A DNA stretch of 64,000 bases. Origin: an uncultured bacterium. GTDB taxonomy: Bacteria; Desulfobacterota_D; UBA1144; Nemesobacterales; UBA2774. The stretch covers positions 416,001 to 480,000 of the forward strand of contig CAVPJU010000006.1 in NCBI GenBank assembly GCA_963705505.1, given 5' to 3'. Below, piece by piece: positions 47,714 to 56,781 of the stretch (its first letter is position 1; the number at the start of each line of letters is the position of its first letter). Under the pieces are notes generated by a model, which saw nothing but the letters and a program-made list of their open reading frames with translations, made no database searches and was not told the DNA's origin. The position numbers and the translations under genes were made by a program.

Positions 47714-48181
47714 ATGACCGTAAAAGAGCTTGTCCTGAATGCCATAACCCCGTCACCGCTATTTCTCATAGAATTGCCCAATACCAAGTGCAGGATTATT
47801 AAAAATAATGATTCCAGGGTCTATTGCGGTGTATATCCGCTAATCGGCGGTTTGTTCAGAAAGGATATTGAGGAAACAAAAAAATTCGGCAGAGCTATGT
47901 GCGATGAAGTCGCTCAAAAAATGGATAACCATGGATTTTTTACTACGGACGAAACGCCTGAATACGGAATTTCTTACGGAATATCCGAGGAAGAATATCA
48001 AAAAATATTCGAGCAGACCGGCGCTTCGCCGGATCGTCACCTTGTCGTCATGTTCGCATACCCGGAAAGAGAAGCGCTTGAGACTCAGACTTGCTTCGAG
48101 GAGCTCCTGAGAAAAACTTATTTGAAATACAGGATGGAAGACGCGGGCGCTGCTTCCCGCTTTGAGTTCCTTTACGAATAG
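47714..48181 (+). CDS. Hypothetical protein resembling the GatE insertion (AspRS-like GAD) domain
   Basis: NTKCRII...GGLF.KDI...KKFG...GFFTTDE.PEYGI.EEE pattern; GGAGG RBS. Confidence 0.55.
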   Translation: MTVKELVLNAITPSPLFLIELPNTKCRIIKNNDSRVYCGVYPLIGGLFRKDIEETKKFGRAMCDEVAQKMDNHGFFTTDETPEYGISYGISEEEYQKIFEQTGASPDRHLVVMFAYPEREALETQTCFEELLRKTYLKYRMEDAGAASRFEFLYE

Positions 48182-48194
48182 AATTGACAAAGGT

Positions 48195-49074
48195 TTAGAT
48201 CGACGAAAAGAATTTTAAGAGCTCGTCGGATACGTCTTCCGGTTTTTCCTCGGGAAGGAAATGGCCGCAGTCGAGCGCACGTCCTTGGACGTTCACAGCT
48301 TTTTCTTTCCACGTATCGATTACATCGTAAGTCCTGTGTATGAACCCCTTGCCTCCCCACAGCACTAAAAGCGGGCAAGCGATCTTTTTATCGAAGTCTT
48401 CCTCATCGTGTACGAGGTCTATTGTCGCCGCCGCCCTGTAATCCTCGCAGCTCGCGTGAATAGCGGCGGGGTCGCTGAAGCACCTCACGTATTCACTCAC
48501 GGCATTTTCATCGAACCGGGCGCCGGGCGCGCTCCAGCGTCTGAGCTTTTCTTTGAGATAATATTCCGGATCGCACCCGATCATTTTTTCAGGGAGGTTG
48601 TCGGGCTGGATTAAGAAGAACCAGTGGTAGTAGCCTGTCGCGAACGCCTTGTCCGCGCCCTTGAACATCGTATGCGTGGGAGCGATGTCCATGACGCAAG
48701 CGGCTTCTATGCGGTCCGGATAGTCAAGAGCCATCCTGTGCGTTACCCTTCCTCCCCTGTCGTGCCCTGCCGCGAAGAAGCTCTTATATCCGAGGGATTC
48801 CATTACCTCGACGCAGTCCCTTGGCCATAGCGCGCTTGGAATACGTGTGGTGGTCGGGAGAGGATTCGGGCTTCGAGCTGTCCCCGTAGCCTCTTAAGTC
48901 CATGCATACGACGTGGAAGTTTTCCGCGAGCCCGGGCGCGGTCCTGTGCCACATCACGTGCGTCTGAGGGTATCCGTGGAGCAGCAGGAGGGGCCTGCCC
49001 TTTCCCCCGTGGACGAGATTGATTACTGCGCCCGAGGTTTCGATTTTAGTCTTTTGGAATTTGTCGTCGAACAT
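48195..49074 (-). pseudogene. Haloacetate (fluoroacetate) dehalogenase-like alpha/beta hydrolase, frameshifted (probably a sequencing indel)
   Basis: [43 protein letters not shown]; removing one base from CCC at 48818-48820 joins the halves ([14 protein letters not shown]). Confidence 0.88.
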
Positions 49075-49126: not shown

Positions 49127-50008
49127 CTATATATTGTTTCTGTCGAGCGACCTGTACTGTATCGCTTCGGATATGTGGTGAGCGAGGACGGTTTCGGAGC
49201 CTTCGAGGTCGGCGATAGTGCGGGAGACTTTCAATATTCTGTCATAGGCCCTTGCGCTCAAGCCGAGTTTATCAATCGCGGTCTCGAGCAGCTTTATCCC
49301 TTTCTCATCCGGTCTCGATGCTTTCCTGACCATTGACGGAGACATCTGGGAATTCGAGTGAATTTTGCTCCTCTTGAACCTCGCCTTCTGTATCTCCCTC
49401 GCGCGGTTGACGCGGCTCTTGATCGGGGACGAGCTTTCCCCTCCCGCTTCGTCGGCGAGCTCCTTATACCTCACGGGCGGGACTTCTATGTGTATATCTA
49501 TCCTGTCGAGGAGCGGTCCGGAGACCTTCGCCCTGTATTTCTGTATCTGTATGGGCGAGCAGGTGCACTCTTTTTGCAGATCGCCGTGATACCCGCATGG
49601 GCATGGGTTCATCGCCGCGACCAGCATGAAGTTGGCGGGGTATGTGATCGAAGTGGACGCCCTCGATATCGTCACCATGCCGTCCTCGAGAGGCTGGCGC
49701 ATTACTTCGAGGACATTCTTCCTGAATTCCGGGAGCTCGTCGAGAAAAAGGACGCCGTTATGCGCGAGGCTCACCTCGCCCGGCTTAGGGATCGCGCCCC
49801 CGCCTATGAGCCCGGCGTCGCTTATCGTGTGGTGAGGGGAGCGGAAGGGCCTCGTCGCGTATAGCGATGAATGGTTGGGGAGAAGGCCCGACACGGAGTA
49901 TATCTTCGTCGTCTCCAGCGCTTCCTCGAAGCTCATATCGGGGAGTATGGTGGGGAGTCTCCGGGCGAGCATCGTTTTCCCCGTGCCGGGGGAGCCAATC
50001 ATGAGCAC
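49127..50008 (-). pseudogene. comM: comM (YifB Mg-chelatase-like AAA+ ATPase), 3' fragment
   Basis: [12 protein letters not shown]alker [39 protein letters not shown]. Confidence 0.95.
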
Positions 50009-50052
50009 ACATGATCTCTTAAACTCCAGATAATCAAGAAATGGTTCATCTG

Positions 50053-52008
50053 TCAGATTGGGAGACCGTTCTCGTCCAGCCCAGCGAGAGCTCTAGTGGC
50101 TTCTAGGTATAGCTGTAAACGGCGGGAGTTTTCCGCTACCGAAAAATGCTTTTTTAGATTGATGCGTTCACTCAAAGAAGGAAGCGCGAATAATCGGGTT
50201 TGGAGCGAGTACTCGAGTGCTGACTCAATAGCAGGAAACAACCCGTTATCACTGATTAATTGAATGACTGTTCGCGCCGTATTGGCAGCTTCCACAGCTT
50301 TGGCCGGAGGTGATGCGTTCGATGGAAACCAACTAGGTACACCGCCTGCATTTTTCCATCGGTTTTGAATACCGACGGTGCGCCAAATCAGCTCTCCGGT
50401 AGGGAAGCGCGTATCTGCAATATGCGGAGGGTTGTAGTAAACCGCCGGTTGTTTCCAAAAGTCGAGTGCAGATTGTATCGTGGTTGTGAGTGAATCCGCG
50501 TGAGCTTGTGTCCAGCCGGCCGTGTTCAACAGGGATGGAAGCCAACTGGAAGCAGGTACGGCGTTCTTCCATTCCTTTTTTGACTCCTTCGTACTGTCGG
50601 ACTCCCATTGGGTGCTGAGCGAACGCATGTCCTTTAACAGCCGGATCAGGATGCCCATGAATAGAACGTCGCCGAGGTGGTAGCGAAGATAGGCCGTGTA
50701 GGGGCCGAATCTCGGCATCTGCACGGCGCGTGACCTGTCACGCCAGGCGAGAAGTGTGGCGGGGTTGGTTCGAGACTGATACCACCGGGCTGCAACGGTT
50801 AAGGTTATGAATGTGGAGTTTCCGTAATCATCGCCCAGTAAAGCCAGCTTGCGCGCGGTTGCTGAGTCAGGTATCCCACGAGGTTTATGCATTTGCAACA
50901 GCTGGTTTATCTGTGTGTAGGCAGCCTCAAGACTCGCCGAAACGGCCGGTAGGTCCGCCTGAGTTTCGATTGAACTCATCCATAGGGTTTCTACTAGCCG
51001 GTCGAAGGAGGGTTTGTATGAGGTCGAAAGCCTATTACGACGAGTTAGGTCCACGACTGGTGATATGTTGGAAGCGGCGTGAGTTTCTGCCAAAGCACGT
51101 AGCTCGTCTCCCAAAGGAAGAGGCCACGACGTAATCGCATCCAATCCACCCAGCCAATTCAAATTCTCCTCCGTCAAAGTGAGCCGGTAACTTTCGTCTT
51201 TGTGATCCATGGCGACGTCTGCTTGCCTGATCATGATCCACCCTGGCCTGCTGAGAGCATCGTTGGTCAGCGTAGTGTCGGTTGTGCGAAATACATTGGG
51301 CTCACGGCATGTGCCTTCCATCGTAAGAGTCAGAGGCCCATTAGGGAAACTACGCTCAGGAGGTGTGCAGCAGAAATTGCCTTCCAGTCGGTACAGAGCC
51401 ATCATTTCAGTAAAGGGGATCGATCGGTTACCTGAGGCCACGAGTGGCGAAACTAGAACACTCATACGGGATGTATAATCGAACCGCAGCAGTAGTTCGT
51501 GGACTTGACGTGCGGCCTGCACACCTAACGCTTGCAGCTCACGTGACAGTGAGCCGGTCTGTCCAAGGAGTGTTTGCCGCATTATAGAGAGAAGCTCCGT
51601 ACCACTAAAAGAGGATAACTGCGCAACGAATGCAGCGATCTCGTCAAGCGCCACCATGCAACGATAGTCGTGCAAAAAGACATCATCCAAGATTTCGGAC
51701 TGGTGGAGTGCAATCCGCGAATCGATTGTGGCGAGGAGTGAATTATTCGATGCCGCAAGTGCAAAAGCGATGCCGGGAGGCGGTGCTGATTCTAGTCGGG
51801 ACAGATCGGAGATCCATGCTGAAAGCACTCCGGTCCAATAGCTTCGAGCTGCCTGCAGTCTGGAGGGATTGTCAACGATTTTCAGCGCTTCGTTGGGGTT
51901 CATGGTCGGTCCACCATCCCAAAGGGTACCGATACCAGCCATTAAACGATATCCGAGCTCTATGATTAGCTCGGCAAAACTGAGATCTAATTTGTGCTGG
52001 TCAGGCAT
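50053..52008 (-). CDS. Hypothetical protein (about 651 aa), island gene 2
   Basis: Long open frame; ATG at 52008 overlaps the upstream stop (ATGCCTGA) and has an AGGTG RBS; no family recognised. Confidence 0.8.
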
Positions 52009-55000
52009 GTTTAACACCTGCCCTTTGCAATACTTTGGACTGCGGTTTTATCTTTTGGGACCTCACTTTGCTCACCAACCGCTCTCTCGATTCTTTCCGA
52101 CGTATCTTGTGTTCGAACAGATGCTGCCCTGAGGGCTTTCGCGGTGACTTTCGCTTCTGAGGTTTACCGGGCATTAGTACAATCACTCTCGTCGGAGGTT
52201 TCGGAGCCGCAGATGCGGGGACAGCGACGAAAGTCGCGGTCTGTTCGATGCGGCTATCGCTCTCTGCGATCACAATCAGTATTGTATGGAGACCTTCGTA
52301 TAAAGATCCCAGTTTCAGCACGGTTCGCAATCGTAATGTTATGTCAGATTGCTGCTTGAGCTTGGGCATCCGACCTGCCGGGATTTTCGAATCGAGGGCC
52401 CACGTAGCGGCGGTCTTCTTCTTTTGCGACCTGTTCTTGCTCATCCGGATCGCTTGGTCGAAGTGTTGACCCCACACGCCTATATTGTCTCTCAGATTGA
52501 CGATTGGAAGTCGCAGGCCATCGAGTGCGGTTTCAACTTCAAAACGGTCGAGCTCTAGCTCGACGCCGTCGAGCCAAACGAAGACTCGCTGTTGTTCGTT
52601 CTCGCCAAGCCCAAGGAAGGACTGAGGTACACCTTCCAGTTCGATCTGGACGGTGACGTCGCGATCATAAGCGCTGGCATGCTTCGGTTCAACGATGTTA
52701 ATCGATCTCGGGCCAGGTAGCGTTTCAGCTAATTGAGTATTTACGTGCGTCTGTTCCTGCTTCACATCGCTCTGCGTGTGTTCTGCCTCTGCCAGCTCTT
52801 GCTCAAGACCGAATGCATGGGCGAGCGCCTCGGCTAAGTCGTTCGCGGCGCTCTCAAACAGTTGCAGCCCACTAATCAAGCTTCGCAGGGTCGGCTCAAT
52901 CCAGCTGAGGTTCAAGTGAACGGAACCAAGATTGATGTCCACTTCAAACCTTCGCGTGCGCAAGTGCGCTCCCGACCAGTCTATCTCCACAACCTGCATG
53001 TTCCAAGCGACCTCAAAGCCGATGGGAATTGTTGGAGAGTGTCCAAGGCGGTCCAGAACACGATCGACAAACCAATCCACTAAAATCCCCGAAATCTCGC
53101 TAGCCAGATTCGCTCCTGGCTCCACATCTCGGAAGCGATCCATTAGATCGTCCACCTCATTGCTGACAGCCTCGATCGCTTCCCAGATTGCGTCCGCAAA
53201 GGAATTGTCTAGAAGATCGTTGATGGTGTTTCGTAATTGATTTCGTGCAGACTGCTTAGCTGATCTGGGAAGAGACTTGTACACAATGTTGTCGGTCAAA
53301 ATCGGTTTGATGAATTTATACACTTCATCAACCAATGCGGAACGGATAGCGTTTCTGCCGGCGCCCGTGGAGAGCATCGAGATGAGCGAACGTAGCTCAG
53401 CGAAAGCAGCGGTAAATGCAGCACCGACCTGAGCGATTAATTGTGATATCTGCTGTGCGAGATCTGCAAGCAGTGCGAGGATATCCAGCGCTAGTTGATT
53501 CAGCTGATTCAACCATTGCTGAACCTGTTCCTGGATAGCTTTGATAACTTCCAACAGATCCTCGAGCAGCTTCTGACCAAGCCGCAAAAGCAGCTTGGTC
53601 ACGAAGAGTTGGAAGCGCTGCCCGGCTATGCCGGCTAACTCATGGGAGAGTGCATCCAGAGTAAGGGGGTCAGGTACAAAGGTGTTATCAGCCAGTTGCT
53701 GAACGAAAGAGCCCTGGTTATCCAGAGGCAATGGCTCTAAGAGCTGGAACATAGCTTCGCGGATGTGTACGCGGGTTTCCGGTGGCAGTGGCCCGAAAAC
53801 TTCCCCCCCAATCCGAAGAACTTCTTGGCATAATTCTTCAATGTCCTCCGCGTTCGAGTTGCCTACCAGTGGCGTCAAGGTATCAACTAGTCCGACTTCA
53901 TCAACATGATCGGCGAGATCGAACATCAGGTCTTGCATTTCTCTCTGTGCAGTAGTCATGAGAATGTCAGTCGTGACGGCGAGACTGCGCCCAAGCAGCA
54001 TGATTAACACACTCGACAGCGCTTCGGTAAAAACACTCTTGTCGATAGGATCGGTATCCCAGGTGAGGATACGGTCGAATACCAGATCCGTGGATAGCGA
54101 CATGGAAGGCATCAGCACTTCGTCAAAATACAGGCGGAGGTCGGGATTTTCGCTCGACACATTTTGCACAATGGGCTCTAGCTGCTGTCGGACACCATCT
54201 TCAAGGAAGCTTGAAAGTCCTCCGGCGAGCGAGCTCAGACTCGCTTGAACATCGGGTCTTCCCTGGGCGTTATTTTTGAATGGCCCAAGCTGTGTCAAGA
54301 GAATCTCAGCAACCTGGGATAGTCCTGCAGCTACTTTGTCCTGGAAAATTTCCAAAAAGACCTTTACGTCCGGCGCGAGAGCGATGGCAAGCTGGACGCC
54401 CTCAGTCAACAGATACTGGATGAGCTCGTTCAGTTGTAATGCACTGGTAGTATTGTTGCCGCGAATTTCACGACGAATGTCACTTCCCGGGTCGGACACC
54501 ACCGATCCAGTGAAACTTTGTTGAGCGCTTGCCGGATTAAGACCCACTAGTGAGAAGGAGGCCCGTGCTTGGGGCTGGTCGAGTCGATCTGAGCAAACGC
54601 GCATCAATTCCATAGCAGCCCACAGGATCGCCACAGGTTTTCGAGGCAGTGTCGCATTAGGACTAACCGCGTCGAGCGCGGCAACGGCGAGCGGTACGAG
54701 CTCGGACCAGTAGCTGAGGCTTGTGGTCGCGAAGGGGTCATCTGGACACTGCGTCATCTTCAAGCCGAGTGCGCTAATTGCAGAATTGGCTGTATCCCAA
54801 CTGTTGCCGCTGAGCGTGGCAAGCTCGGATTCGAGGGTTTGTTGCAAATTGAGGAGACCAGCGGTTGCGATGCGCTGCAACAGGTAGCGCTGGCTTTCTT
54901 CCAAGATGACTTGGCAGCAGCGAAGAGCCAAACGCTTGGCACCGTCGGATGTGACTGGTACAGGCTCAGTTCCATTACCAAGCAGGATTCCGATCTCGTA

Positions 55001-55759
55001 AGCGGTACGGAAGGCAATCTTTGCCGGGGCTGAGAAAGCTCTAACAATGGACGCTTCGTTGATGGCCGTGGGTGGTAGCTGGCCTATAATCTGCGAAACG
55101 ACTTCATCGACGACCACGTCCACTGAGCGGCTCACCAGGCGGTCGAAGTTCGTGATGCCAGCATTGACGAAAAATCGAAATCCCGCGCCTGCTTTGAGGC
55201 CAGCTCCCATCTCAAAGAGGAAATTGAAACCGGGCTTTTCGTTCTGTGTAGGACCTTGCAGAGCACGTCCTGTTACTACAAGGTTCACATAGGCCATGGC
55301 GGAAGCGGCCGCCTTCGCATATAGGCCTCCGCCGAATGTTACTTCATCGAGAAAAATCACGAAGAGTTTCAGCGGTAAACCTTTCACCTTTAGGTCGTTC
55401 TGAACCAGGCTTAGTAGATCTCCTGCGCTTAAGCCAAGCCTTAGAGAAACGCCAGCCGCGGCCTCAGCTGATAGCTTGAGACGCACAGCGAGGCCGATCT
55501 CATCGAATAGGTTAAGCGGCACCTGCACTTGGCCTGTGATACGCACTTCGGCCATGGCTTGGCCGGTCAGCTCGGCGGCGATATATTTTTGGAAATTTGC
55601 ATCAAGGTTAATATATGCGCCTAAGCCAAGGTCGAAGGCAATTCCGTGCCTGACCTCAGCCTTGAGTGTGGCAAGAACGTTCCCCTGTATCCCCGCACTT
55701 CCCCAAGGACTGGAAGCACCGGCGGCTGCAGTGACAATTGGCTGGTCCAAATTCGGCAT
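52001..55759 (-). CDS. Hypothetical protein (1252 aa), island gene 1
   Basis: 3.76-kb open frame, AAGGA RBS; Gly/Ala-rich beta N-terminus, helical and coiled-coil middle, Ig-like C-terminal segment, basic tail. Confidence 0.85.
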   Translation of the reverse strand: MPNLDQPIVTAAAGASSPWGSAGIQGNVLATLKAEVRHGIAFDLGLGAYINLDANFQKYIAAELTGQAMAEVRITGQVQVPLNLFDEIGLAVRLKLSAEAAAGVSLRLGLSAGDLLSLVQNDLKVKGLPLKLFVIFLDEVTFGGGLYAKAAASAMAYVNLVVTGRALQGPTQNEKPGFNFLFEMGAGLKAGAGFRFFVNAGITNFDRLVSRSVDVVVDEVVSQIIGQLPPTAINEASIVRAFSAPAKIAFRTAYEIGILLGNGTEPVPVTSDGAKRLALRCCQVILEESQRYLLQRIATAGLLNLQQTLESELATLSGNSWDTANSAISALGLKMTQCPDDPFATTSLSYWSELVPLAVAALDAVSPNATLPRKPVAILWAAMELMRVCSDRLDQPQARASFSLVGLNPASAQQSFTGSVVSDPGSDIRREIRGNNTTSALQLNELIQYLLTEGVQLAIALAPDVKVFLEIFQDKVAAGLSQVAEILLTQLGPFKNNAQGRPDVQASLSSLAGGLSSFLEDGVRQQLEPIVQNVSSENPDLRLYFDEVLMPSMSLSTDLVFDRILTWDTDPIDKSVFTEALSSVLIMLLGRSLAVTTDILMTTAQREMQDLMFDLADHVDEVGLVDTLTPLVGNSNAEDIEELCQEVLRIGGEVFGPLPPETRVHIREAMFQLLEPLPLDNQGSFVQQLADNTFVPDPLTLDALSHELAGIAGQRFQLFVTKLLLRLGQKLLEDLLEVIKAIQEQVQQWLNQLNQLALDILALLADLAQQISQLIAQVGAAFTAAFAELRSLISMLSTGAGRNAIRSALVDEVYKFIKPILTDNIVYKSLPRSAKQSARNQLRNTINDLLDNSFADAIWEAIEAVSNEVDDLMDRFRDVEPGANLASEISGILVDWFVDRVLDRLGHSPTIPIGFEVAWNMQVVEIDWSGAHLRTRRFEVDINLGSVHLNLSWIEPTLRSLISGLQLFESAANDLAEALAHAFGLEQELAEAEHTQSDVKQEQTHVNTQLAETLPGPRSINIVEPKHASAYDRDVTVQIELEGVPQSFLGLGENEQQRVFVWLDGVELELDRFEVETALDGLRLPIVNLRDNIGVWGQHFDQAIRMSKNRSQKKKTAATWALDSKIPAGRMPKLKQQSDITLRLRTVLKLGSLYEGLHTILIVIAESDSRIEQTATFVAVPASAAPKPPTRVIVLMPGKPQKRKSPRKPSGQHLFEHKIRRKESRERLVSKVRSQKIKPQSKVLQRAGVKHA

Positions 55760-55866
55760 TAGGCAAGCATCCTTACAATAGAAGGCTAACTAATAATAAG
55801 AACGCAATTAATGCAAAATTACATTCGAAATGAAGGGTTTTACAATATAATTCGCTATTAATCCTG

Positions 55867-55895
55867 ATACTACAACAATTATAATTTCTCGTCAA
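55867..55895 (-). promoter_or_regulatory. Sigma70 promoter driving the island operon
   Basis: Minus strand TTGACG-N17-TAGTAT about 110 bp upstream of the 1252-aa gene; AATTATAATT palindrome in the spacer. Confidence 0.6.
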
Positions 55896-56119
55896 CAAGG
55901 TATATAGAAACAGAATAGAGGCAAAGCAAAAACTATTAGATCAGTTTGTTGTGATCATGTTCAATAATTATATTAGCTTCCCGAATGACGATATTGAAGT
56001 AAGATTTCAGATAAAATCGTAATATAACTTTGTTCACAAAACAATTAAGTATCAACAAGAATGTTTCTTTATAGAACAGAAAAAGGGAAACACAATTGTG
56101 GATTTCTGGCTATAACGTA

Positions 56120-56781
56120 AGCACGTTGTGCACGTTGTGCCCGCCGCTCGCCGCGACTTCGAGAGCCCTCTTTACGTGCTCCTGCCCTTTCACCTCGTGG
56201 AAATCGACGTCGTAGGTCTTTGCCTTTGTGAATATCGATCCTATATCTATCCTCGTCGGAGGGATTTCCTTTTTGCCTGCGAGAAACTCGATTAATTCCT
56301 GGAGGGATTCTATCGCGAATACGTCAACACCCTCGACGACCGCGGCTTCTTCCGCGTTTTCTTTAGGGAGAAATATTCCCTTGAGCCCCGAGTCCCTCAC
56401 GCAAATAGAAGAGGGCAATGCGCCCTTAATCGGCTTTACCCTGCCGTCGAGTGAGAGCTCGCCGAGGATTACATACCTGCTCAGGAGCTCGTGGTCTATC
56501 AGTCCTATCGCGGAGAGGATTCCAAGCGAGATGGGGAGGTCGAAGGCCGAGCCCTCTTTCCTTATGTCGGCGGGGGCCAGGTTGACCGTGATCCTTCTGG
56601 AAGGGAATTCGTAGCCGCAGTTCTTTATAGCCGCCCTCACTCTCTCCTTGCTTTCCCTGACCGCGCCTTCGGGGAGGCCTACTGTGTTGAACTGCGGGAG
56701 CCCGAACGCGAGGTCCACCTCGACATCCACCAGGTAGGCGTCGACTCCGAGTACTGCGCTGCTCAGGACTTTTGACATCAT
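56120..56781 (-). pseudogene. comM: comM 5' fragment
   Basis: V.VEVD...GLP.F..VGLP...VRES.ERV, ITVNLAPAD..KEGS.FDLPI, GELSLDG, VKGQ...KRALEVAA.GGHN. Confidence 0.95.

Follow-up and report, generated by a model that had tools for sequence, protein, structure and literature searches.

A recombinase-less insert in comM of a Nemesobacterales bacterium and its relation to a clade of large serine recombinases

The interrupted comM gene and its insert

In this work we have analysed a 64,000-nucleotide stretch of DNA from an uncultured bacterium of the order Nemesobacterales (GenBank assembly GCA_963705505.1, contig CAVPJU010000006.1, positions 416,001 to 480,000; hereafter the window, and G000 for its genome), in which comM, the gene of a DNA-uptake helicase, is cut by an insert of 6.1 kb. 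The gene (TIGR00368, PF01078/PF13541) lies on the minus strand and is split just before its Walker A motif, as a sequence-only reading of this DNA had proposed. The 5' half (56122..56781, minus strand) comprises the Lon_C/ChlI region as far as GGHNV and the 3' half (49127..50005, minus strand, its upper end given as about 50008) runs from Walker A on, and both frames are still open. The short repeat AGCAC is found at both ends (50004-50008 and 56120-56124), and each junction lies within an interrupted palindrome (49998-50015 and 56114-56127), exactly where that reading had placed them. It had also held that excision through the repeat restores a frame of about 512 codons. A join through AGCAC does give an open frame of 512 aa, reading GGHNVHNVLMIG, but the host half-site carries a 9-bp tandem duplication which had been missed (56122..56139, minus strand, copies 56122-56130 and 56131-56139). 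Because of this duplication the 5' half ends GGHNVHNVL and the 512-aa product has HNVHNV, with three extra residues before Walker A. The only join that yields the normal comM protein of 509 aa passes through the 4-bp GTGC (56130-56133 / 50005-50008). A single HNV copy was present in all 24 relative loci that read through the motif; in the other six of the 30 loci scanned the gene is interrupted or decayed or lies at the end of a contig.

The insert contains only two large open reading frames (ORFs), of 1252 aa and 654/651 aa, which form a coupled, overlapping pair behind an AT-rich leader (55760..56119, GC 0.29). The leader holds the attachment arm discussed below as well as a weak sigma-70-like site which faces the cargo and scores no better than shuffled sequences. 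The 1252-aa protein (52001..55759, minus strand) showed only sub-cut-off matches of the coiled-coil type, at residues ~700-880, and has homologues which are 29-65% identical, Vineibacter terrae being among their sources. The start of the mainly helical 651-aa protein (50053..52008, minus strand; 654 aa from a GTG at 52017) overlaps the upstream stop, and its family has 63 representatives. For neither protein was there a family above the cut-off. Vineibacter terrae has a homologue of each gene. The homologues on Bacillus plasmids are weak and have hypothetical genes on either side. A search of genome contigs gave no further locus of the cargo, and among 120 genomes of the phylum the cargo family occurs in one, which is G000 itself. 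The third-position GC content of the cargo is 0.54-0.57, versus 0.63-0.75 for host genes. The earlier statement that no integrase or transposase is encoded inside stands, since neither cargo protein matched a recombinase or transposase in Pfam (searched with the query and 47 homologues), NCBIfam, PADLOC or PHROGs, and on the same grounds a cryptic recombinase in the cargo was ruled out. Recombinase likeness was also absent in PDB sequences, the ESM atlas and the Foldseek pdb and viral sets, where the 651-aa protein was the only one modelled. We likewise rejected an insertion sequence or composite transposon, as there is no transposase, no long terminal inverted repeat and no second copy of the ends.

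The model of the 651-aa protein built from 47 sequences reached a pLDDT of 89.7, compared with 37.8 for an earlier model from five sequences. In a structure search with VIA the top 11 rows were all lysozyme-like, at a level below the bar which the tool sets for helical models, and the best match was MltF (Z 8.8, rmsd 3.7, 178 aligned residues); Foldseek returned nothing at E 0.001. A glutamate, E209, is invariant in 47 of 47 homologues and lies within LALxRQEG just after the helix 199-208. This surrounding presumably resembles the transglycosylase motif, at the level of the motif and not of superposed residues. We tentatively assign a lysozyme or lytic-transglycosylase fold to the modelled protein, as a lead towards a cell-wall hydrolase. 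Through this protein the cargo brings in a family of some 60 uncharacterised members, whose fold may be that of a cell-wall hydrolase.

The two ends of the insert and the recombinase clade

The comM 3' half was matched in 44 of 61 related genomes. Where the gene is interrupted, this is at one of two sites. At the site used in the window, the genome G010 carries a 25.5-kb island with a large serine recombinase (LSR) of 541 aa (PF00239, PF07508 and PF13408). The recombinase gene ends at the 3' junction of that island, whose two arms form a long inverted repeat around a CT dinucleotide. It is the only close member of its clade in 33 genomes of the family (E 3.5e-278, the next 2.5e-62). A scan of metagenomes with an 18-sequence alignment gave nine loci, among them seven clade members, six of which show the end of the LSR gene: L116, L118, L119 and L121 join comM at the same site (two of them inverted), L120 has an intact attP and L117 joins other DNA. 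The sequence-only reading had described a site-specific element without a recombinase and had proposed a search of related comM loci for larger, recombinase-bearing versions. Both points found support in relatives such as G010, whose larger, LSR-bearing islands have the same end at the same site.

At the 5' junction of the window insert a CT dinucleotide (56120..56121, minus strand) occupies the same register as in G010, L118, L119 and L121. It adjoins a stretch (56052..56119, minus strand) which reads, in the integrase frame, as a detached tail of 22 codons, LRYSQKSTIVFPFFCSIKKHSC, and which we identify from its sequence as the true attP' arm of this LSR clade. The junction has the composition of an attL site: a host arm, here altered by the 9-bp duplication, the CT core and the attP' arm. 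The window arm and the intact attP of L120, a locus found by protein search, are identical at 21 of 24 bases, and a match to the L120 arm of at least 19 of 24 occurs at one of 5,763,934 genome positions; with the G010 arm the agreement is 15 of 24. On a profile of 16 arms the window arm scores 16.1 bits, a level reached by six positions genome-wide, and on a profile of 31 sites (four of 35 having been dropped as comM-derived or degenerate) it scores 23.6 bits versus 7.0 for the next-best genome position. Neither profile includes G000, yet several of their training sites were obtained with patterns to which it had contributed. When the arm is translated in the LSR frame, the tail is conserved at most sites, including G000, and conservation falls over codon positions 1, 2 and 3 as 0.88, 0.83 and 0.75. 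The LSR frame of L120 continues across attP and into the same tail.

The 3' junction has a CT dinucleotide too (50004..50005, minus strand), and on the element side of it lies a 47-bp spacer (50006..50052, minus strand) which contains the off-register palindrome and matches neither the arm at the LSR gene end nor the left arm of the integrase-less cassettes described below. In register, this side scores -27.3 on the attP-arm profile. On a profile of 26 cassette left arms, from which nine of 35 sites had been dropped (chromosomal targets, comM-derived, degenerate or LSR-gene ends), it scores -43.0 in register and -19.0 at best. It matches none of the three left-arm types known here. The 651-aa gene ends 47 bp from the core and its homologues align almost to its stop, which leaves no room for a remnant of the LSR, and no such remnant was seen at either end of the insert. 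The palindromes of the two junctions also differ in position: the 5' one is in register with the crossover core of the relatives, while the centre of the 3' one is 2 bp off that core and falls on the TG of GTGC. A 6-bp arm like that of the 3' palindrome occurs by chance at about 1% of positions (165 of 12,019 in the element and 333 of 43,299 sampled from the genome).

Could a helper recombinase be resident elsewhere in the genome? Searches of the G000 assembly with PF00239 and PF07508 gave no match (controls were positive in 12 of 14 and 2 of 14 genomes, respectively), and as neither domain is encoded in the insert, it is not an autonomous LSR element. Four LSR queries and the clade profile found no serine recombinase in the assembly either. 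The proposed check for further copies of the ends and for orphan serine recombinases came up empty: neither insert end has a second copy in G000, and a left-arm match of 19.2 bits at C10:383878, which overlaps a gene start, was read as chance. The eight tyrosine-recombinase matches of the genome are all at other loci, and viral contigs contained no arm and no LSR relative. The suggestion that the insert could act as a reversible switch on natural transformation found no support, given that one junction alone has a recognizable clade arm, that no serine recombinase was found in the assembly and that excision through CT would leave a three-residue duplication. Both comEC and dprA are intact in G000. 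According to a review, the loss of comM lowers transformation without abolishing it (PMC12378983), so even excision would tune competence and not switch it.

Origin of the insert

How might an insert with a single recognizable arm and no recombinase have come to lie at this site? We think it probable, with a fair margin of doubt, that it is a recombinase-less island which was likely placed by an LSR of the G010 clade, knocked out comM and is probably now stuck. An LSR would have recombined its attP with the comM site, crossing over at the CT core, and since attP is situated in the final codons of the LSR gene, a short tail of that gene would have been left at the 5' junction. The body of the LSR, together with its own arm, would then have been lost exactly to the core at the 3' junction. 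So exact a loss is less suggestive of random deletion than of an event guided by a recombinase at a poor pseudo-site. The LSR may have been deleted in place, or a circle with the cargo may have been cut out before arrival, two routes which the sequence cannot separate. A visiting LSR would excise the insert poorly, because one arm is gone and the host half-site is altered by the 9-bp duplication, and the product would have the three extra residues. With one arm missing, the half-site altered and no helper found, the island is probably fixed.

Several observations weigh against this explanation. True arms can score low, down to 7.4 on the attP-arm profile and -5.8 on the left-arm profile in leave-one-out tests, and the attP-arm score of the 3' side rises to -1.9, its best value, when the register is shifted by 2 nt; a decayed true arm on that side is therefore possible. 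The site patterns were partly derived from the G000 arm, and only G010 and L120 are independent of it. The 3' palindrome, with its chance frequency of about 1%, and the GTGC join which restores normal comM are compatible with a second register of crossover. A helper might lie in the part absent from the assembly, whose completeness is 93.6%. None of the public assembled contigs (depth ~3) bridges either junction, and the exact junction letters therefore rest on this assembly. Just outside comM, an alpha/beta hydrolase gene (48195-49074) has a frameshift near 48790, either as a pseudogene or through an assembly indel, so small sequence errors may exist nearby.

Alternatively, the insert could be a non-autonomous cassette that is still intact but has a diverged downstream end; a visiting LSR would have delivered it, and a helper, should one arrive, could excise it in trans. 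Gene-less ends of the clade do bound many gene blocks (35 sites in 42 loci, an LSR body lying upstream of one), and in G013 a decayed comM 3' half adjoins a cassette left arm that scores 22.3 bits in register, which means that LSR-less ends do reach this site. Left arms vary between lineages, as in G068, and in G000 both comM halves, comEC and dprA have remained open or intact. However, the 3' side of G000 is unlike all three left-arm types, neither a helper nor any excision was observed, and the product would have HNVHNV, so that we consider such a cassette rather unlikely. An improbable explanation is that a different recombinase crossed within GTGC, two bases upstream of CT. The element's end would then include a half-site taken from comM in addition to the P' arm, and excision would give the 509-aa comM. 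This would account for the normal protein and absorb the 9-bp duplication, the 3' palindrome is centred on that very TG, and G031 and G014 have comM-derived half-sites joined to P' at places outside the comM frame. On the other hand, all same-site relatives use the CT register, neither an enzyme nor a second example with the GTGC register was found, and the tyrosine recombinases of this genome match elsewhere.

A public contig from run X1 has an empty comM site with a single copy of the motif. It lends the GTGC join no support, since any intact allele gives the same join, and as it differs from the window at 6 of 167 bases it is more likely, judged on those bases, to come from a sister strain than to be an excision product. 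The least probable explanation, by a little, is that the assembly is wrong at the junctions, either in their details (the 9-bp duplication and the run of TG on the 3' side) or altogether. The lack of bridging contigs and the frameshift in the nearby hydrolase gene would agree with this. But a misassembly would not put the attP' arm of the clade at the exact site and in the register of other genomes, and the contig carrying the window is 821 kb long. Moreover, contigs of the cargo with 0 differences are present in the public runs X1-X5, which also contain host-like comM DNA; runs X5-X7 hold small shares only, with no information on the junctions.

Rows of integrase-less sites and their published counterparts

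The pattern of the arm had 33 matches in 10 of 101 genomes of the order, 12 of them in G014, which is a single contig, and its reversed control had none. A profile seeded on 11 sites gave 35 sites in 42 loci, most of which had been chosen around matches of the arm pattern. Around the core the sites are conserved from about -44 to +60. Within each row the sites share one orientation and are mostly spaced by 1.2-4.8 kb, with some pairs 125-128 bp apart. The rows often separate gene blocks with no LSR nearby, and empty units of ~125 bp are among them. We found such rows in G014:C1 (864856-870886, 1609688-1614549, 2685548-2692907 and ~2997100-3015500), G024:C4 (870001-871937), G024:C14 (92864-94464), G016:C57, G018:C8 and G068:C29. 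For most pairs of sites the homology stops ~85-100 bp away from the core and for a few it extends to ~200 bp; the same gene block was not found at two loci. DNA folding of eight sites yielded energies from -0.7 to -14.8 kcal/mol (values with no shuffle control) and no common structure. By eye, a tyrosine-recombinase-like ORF of 208 aa was recognized in one G014 row and none at the other rows. The layout of the rows, from which alone movement can be inferred, fits cassettes stacked by a visiting integrase.

Does the family, then, run an integron-like gene store on a serine integrase? It would consist of gene blocks with their own gene-less ends (a left end of ~45-90 bp, a right end which is the severed integrase tail, and empty units of ~125 bp), stacked at several loci including comM and dprA and mobilised in trans by an LSR that is seldom resident. 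The window insert would be one such block at comM, with an undescribed two-gene cell-wall-hydrolase module. We consider this possible, if on balance doubtful. In G014, an LSR-less row of 18 kb lies between a truncated dprA and topA (L115:7509-7983, L103:9098), so that a second competence gene is affected. In L170 (736-2297; G031:C54) an intact comM is followed, directly after its stop, by a 23-bp variant of this gene's own target half-site, with CT and the P' arm attached.

The gene comM is itself a well-known LSR target: its homologues (the Mg-chelatase/ATP-dependent-protease gene, comM/yifB) are targeted by 12.4% of predicted site-specific LSRs (Durrant et al., PMC10083194). The window insert shares with those elements the target gene and the 2-bp core flanked by att arms; unlike them, it has one arm only, and both the insert and the assembly are without an LSR. 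For the rows, the nearest published system is that of the Dehalococcoides ssrA islands, in which the 3' end of dsiB overlaps the att site, islands stand in tandem and 15 without an integration module were read as cis-mobilizable (PMC3146451). Those islands use ssrA and a 20-bp direct repeat, whereas the sites here are in comM and elsewhere with a 2-bp core, and the present rows occur at several loci per genome and have their own gene-less left ends. Cis-mobilizable elements (CIMEs) are islands without integration and transfer genes which accrete in tandem at a target site and by definition keep attL and attR (PMC5704250). Pseudo-staphylococcal cassette chromosome (pseudo-SCC) elements and SCC composite islands at orfX/rlmH lack the ccr recombinase genes and lie singly or in tandem at the recombinase site (PMC6243372), and Ccr proteins are LSRs (PMC3146451). 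The window insert works like a CIME or a pseudo-SCC element. It is without integration and transfer genes, its two cargo ORFs being all it holds, but it departs from a CIME in that its attR is not recognizable (-27.3 and -43.0 in register, -1.9 at the 2-nt shift), and from pseudo-SCC, equally recombinase-less, in target, host and recombinase clade. Tn6022/AbaR and Tsy disrupt comM in its Walker B region, guided by TnsF together with Tn7 proteins or a tyrosine recombinase (PMC10293859). In contrast, the window insert lies before Walker A, has a serine-integrase arm and shows no match to such families in its cargo.

The result for the locus itself is mostly deflationary: an ordinary outcome at the best-known LSR target, probably stuck rather than switchable. 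Still, a specific integrase clade, with its attP, can be recognized from one end of the insert, which ties this enzyme to family-wide rows of integrase-less blocks. Mobilisation in trans by a serine integrase is directly testable, as an enzyme is known together with an intact attP and the two kinds of cassette end; what most deserves attention are the family-wide rows, for which a candidate enzyme has been identified. We found no literature in which LSR cassette arrays are called integron-like, in a search that left subscription papers and supplements outside. The attachment-site tables of Durrant et al. could contain this clade.

Some further observations concern the islands of the relatives. 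A second group of comM islands, ~40 bp downstream (G003, G014, G024 and G028), was considered as parent of the window insert and rejected, its LSRs being 25-27% identical and its ends unrelated. In G003 (L052/L053; G003:C5 229053-260809) the comM halves are on opposite strands, and ~17 kb of host genes appear inverted within the second-site LSR island on that contig. The second-site islands of G014 and G003 have in common tyrosine-recombinase-like ORFs of 208 and 217 aa (L054:9439-10062 and L052:7807-8457). In G007:C8 (L050:2687-3812) a contig of 5.9 kb has a second comM 3' half and, 9 bp from the core, an IS3-like element; an intact comM is on C9. The LSR genes at L116:1693, L119:11563 and L057:2382-3131 are inverted relative to the comM 5' half. 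Across the clade the core dinucleotide is variable (CT, AT, TA, AG, GA and TT). Close to the window's own comM, a 155-aa ORF (47714-48181) has a weak GAD-domain match below the cut-off (E 0.00086). Lastly, G069 has five clade ends (contigs C291, C300, C150, C296 and C55) in five different targets other than comM, and several genes are broken there.

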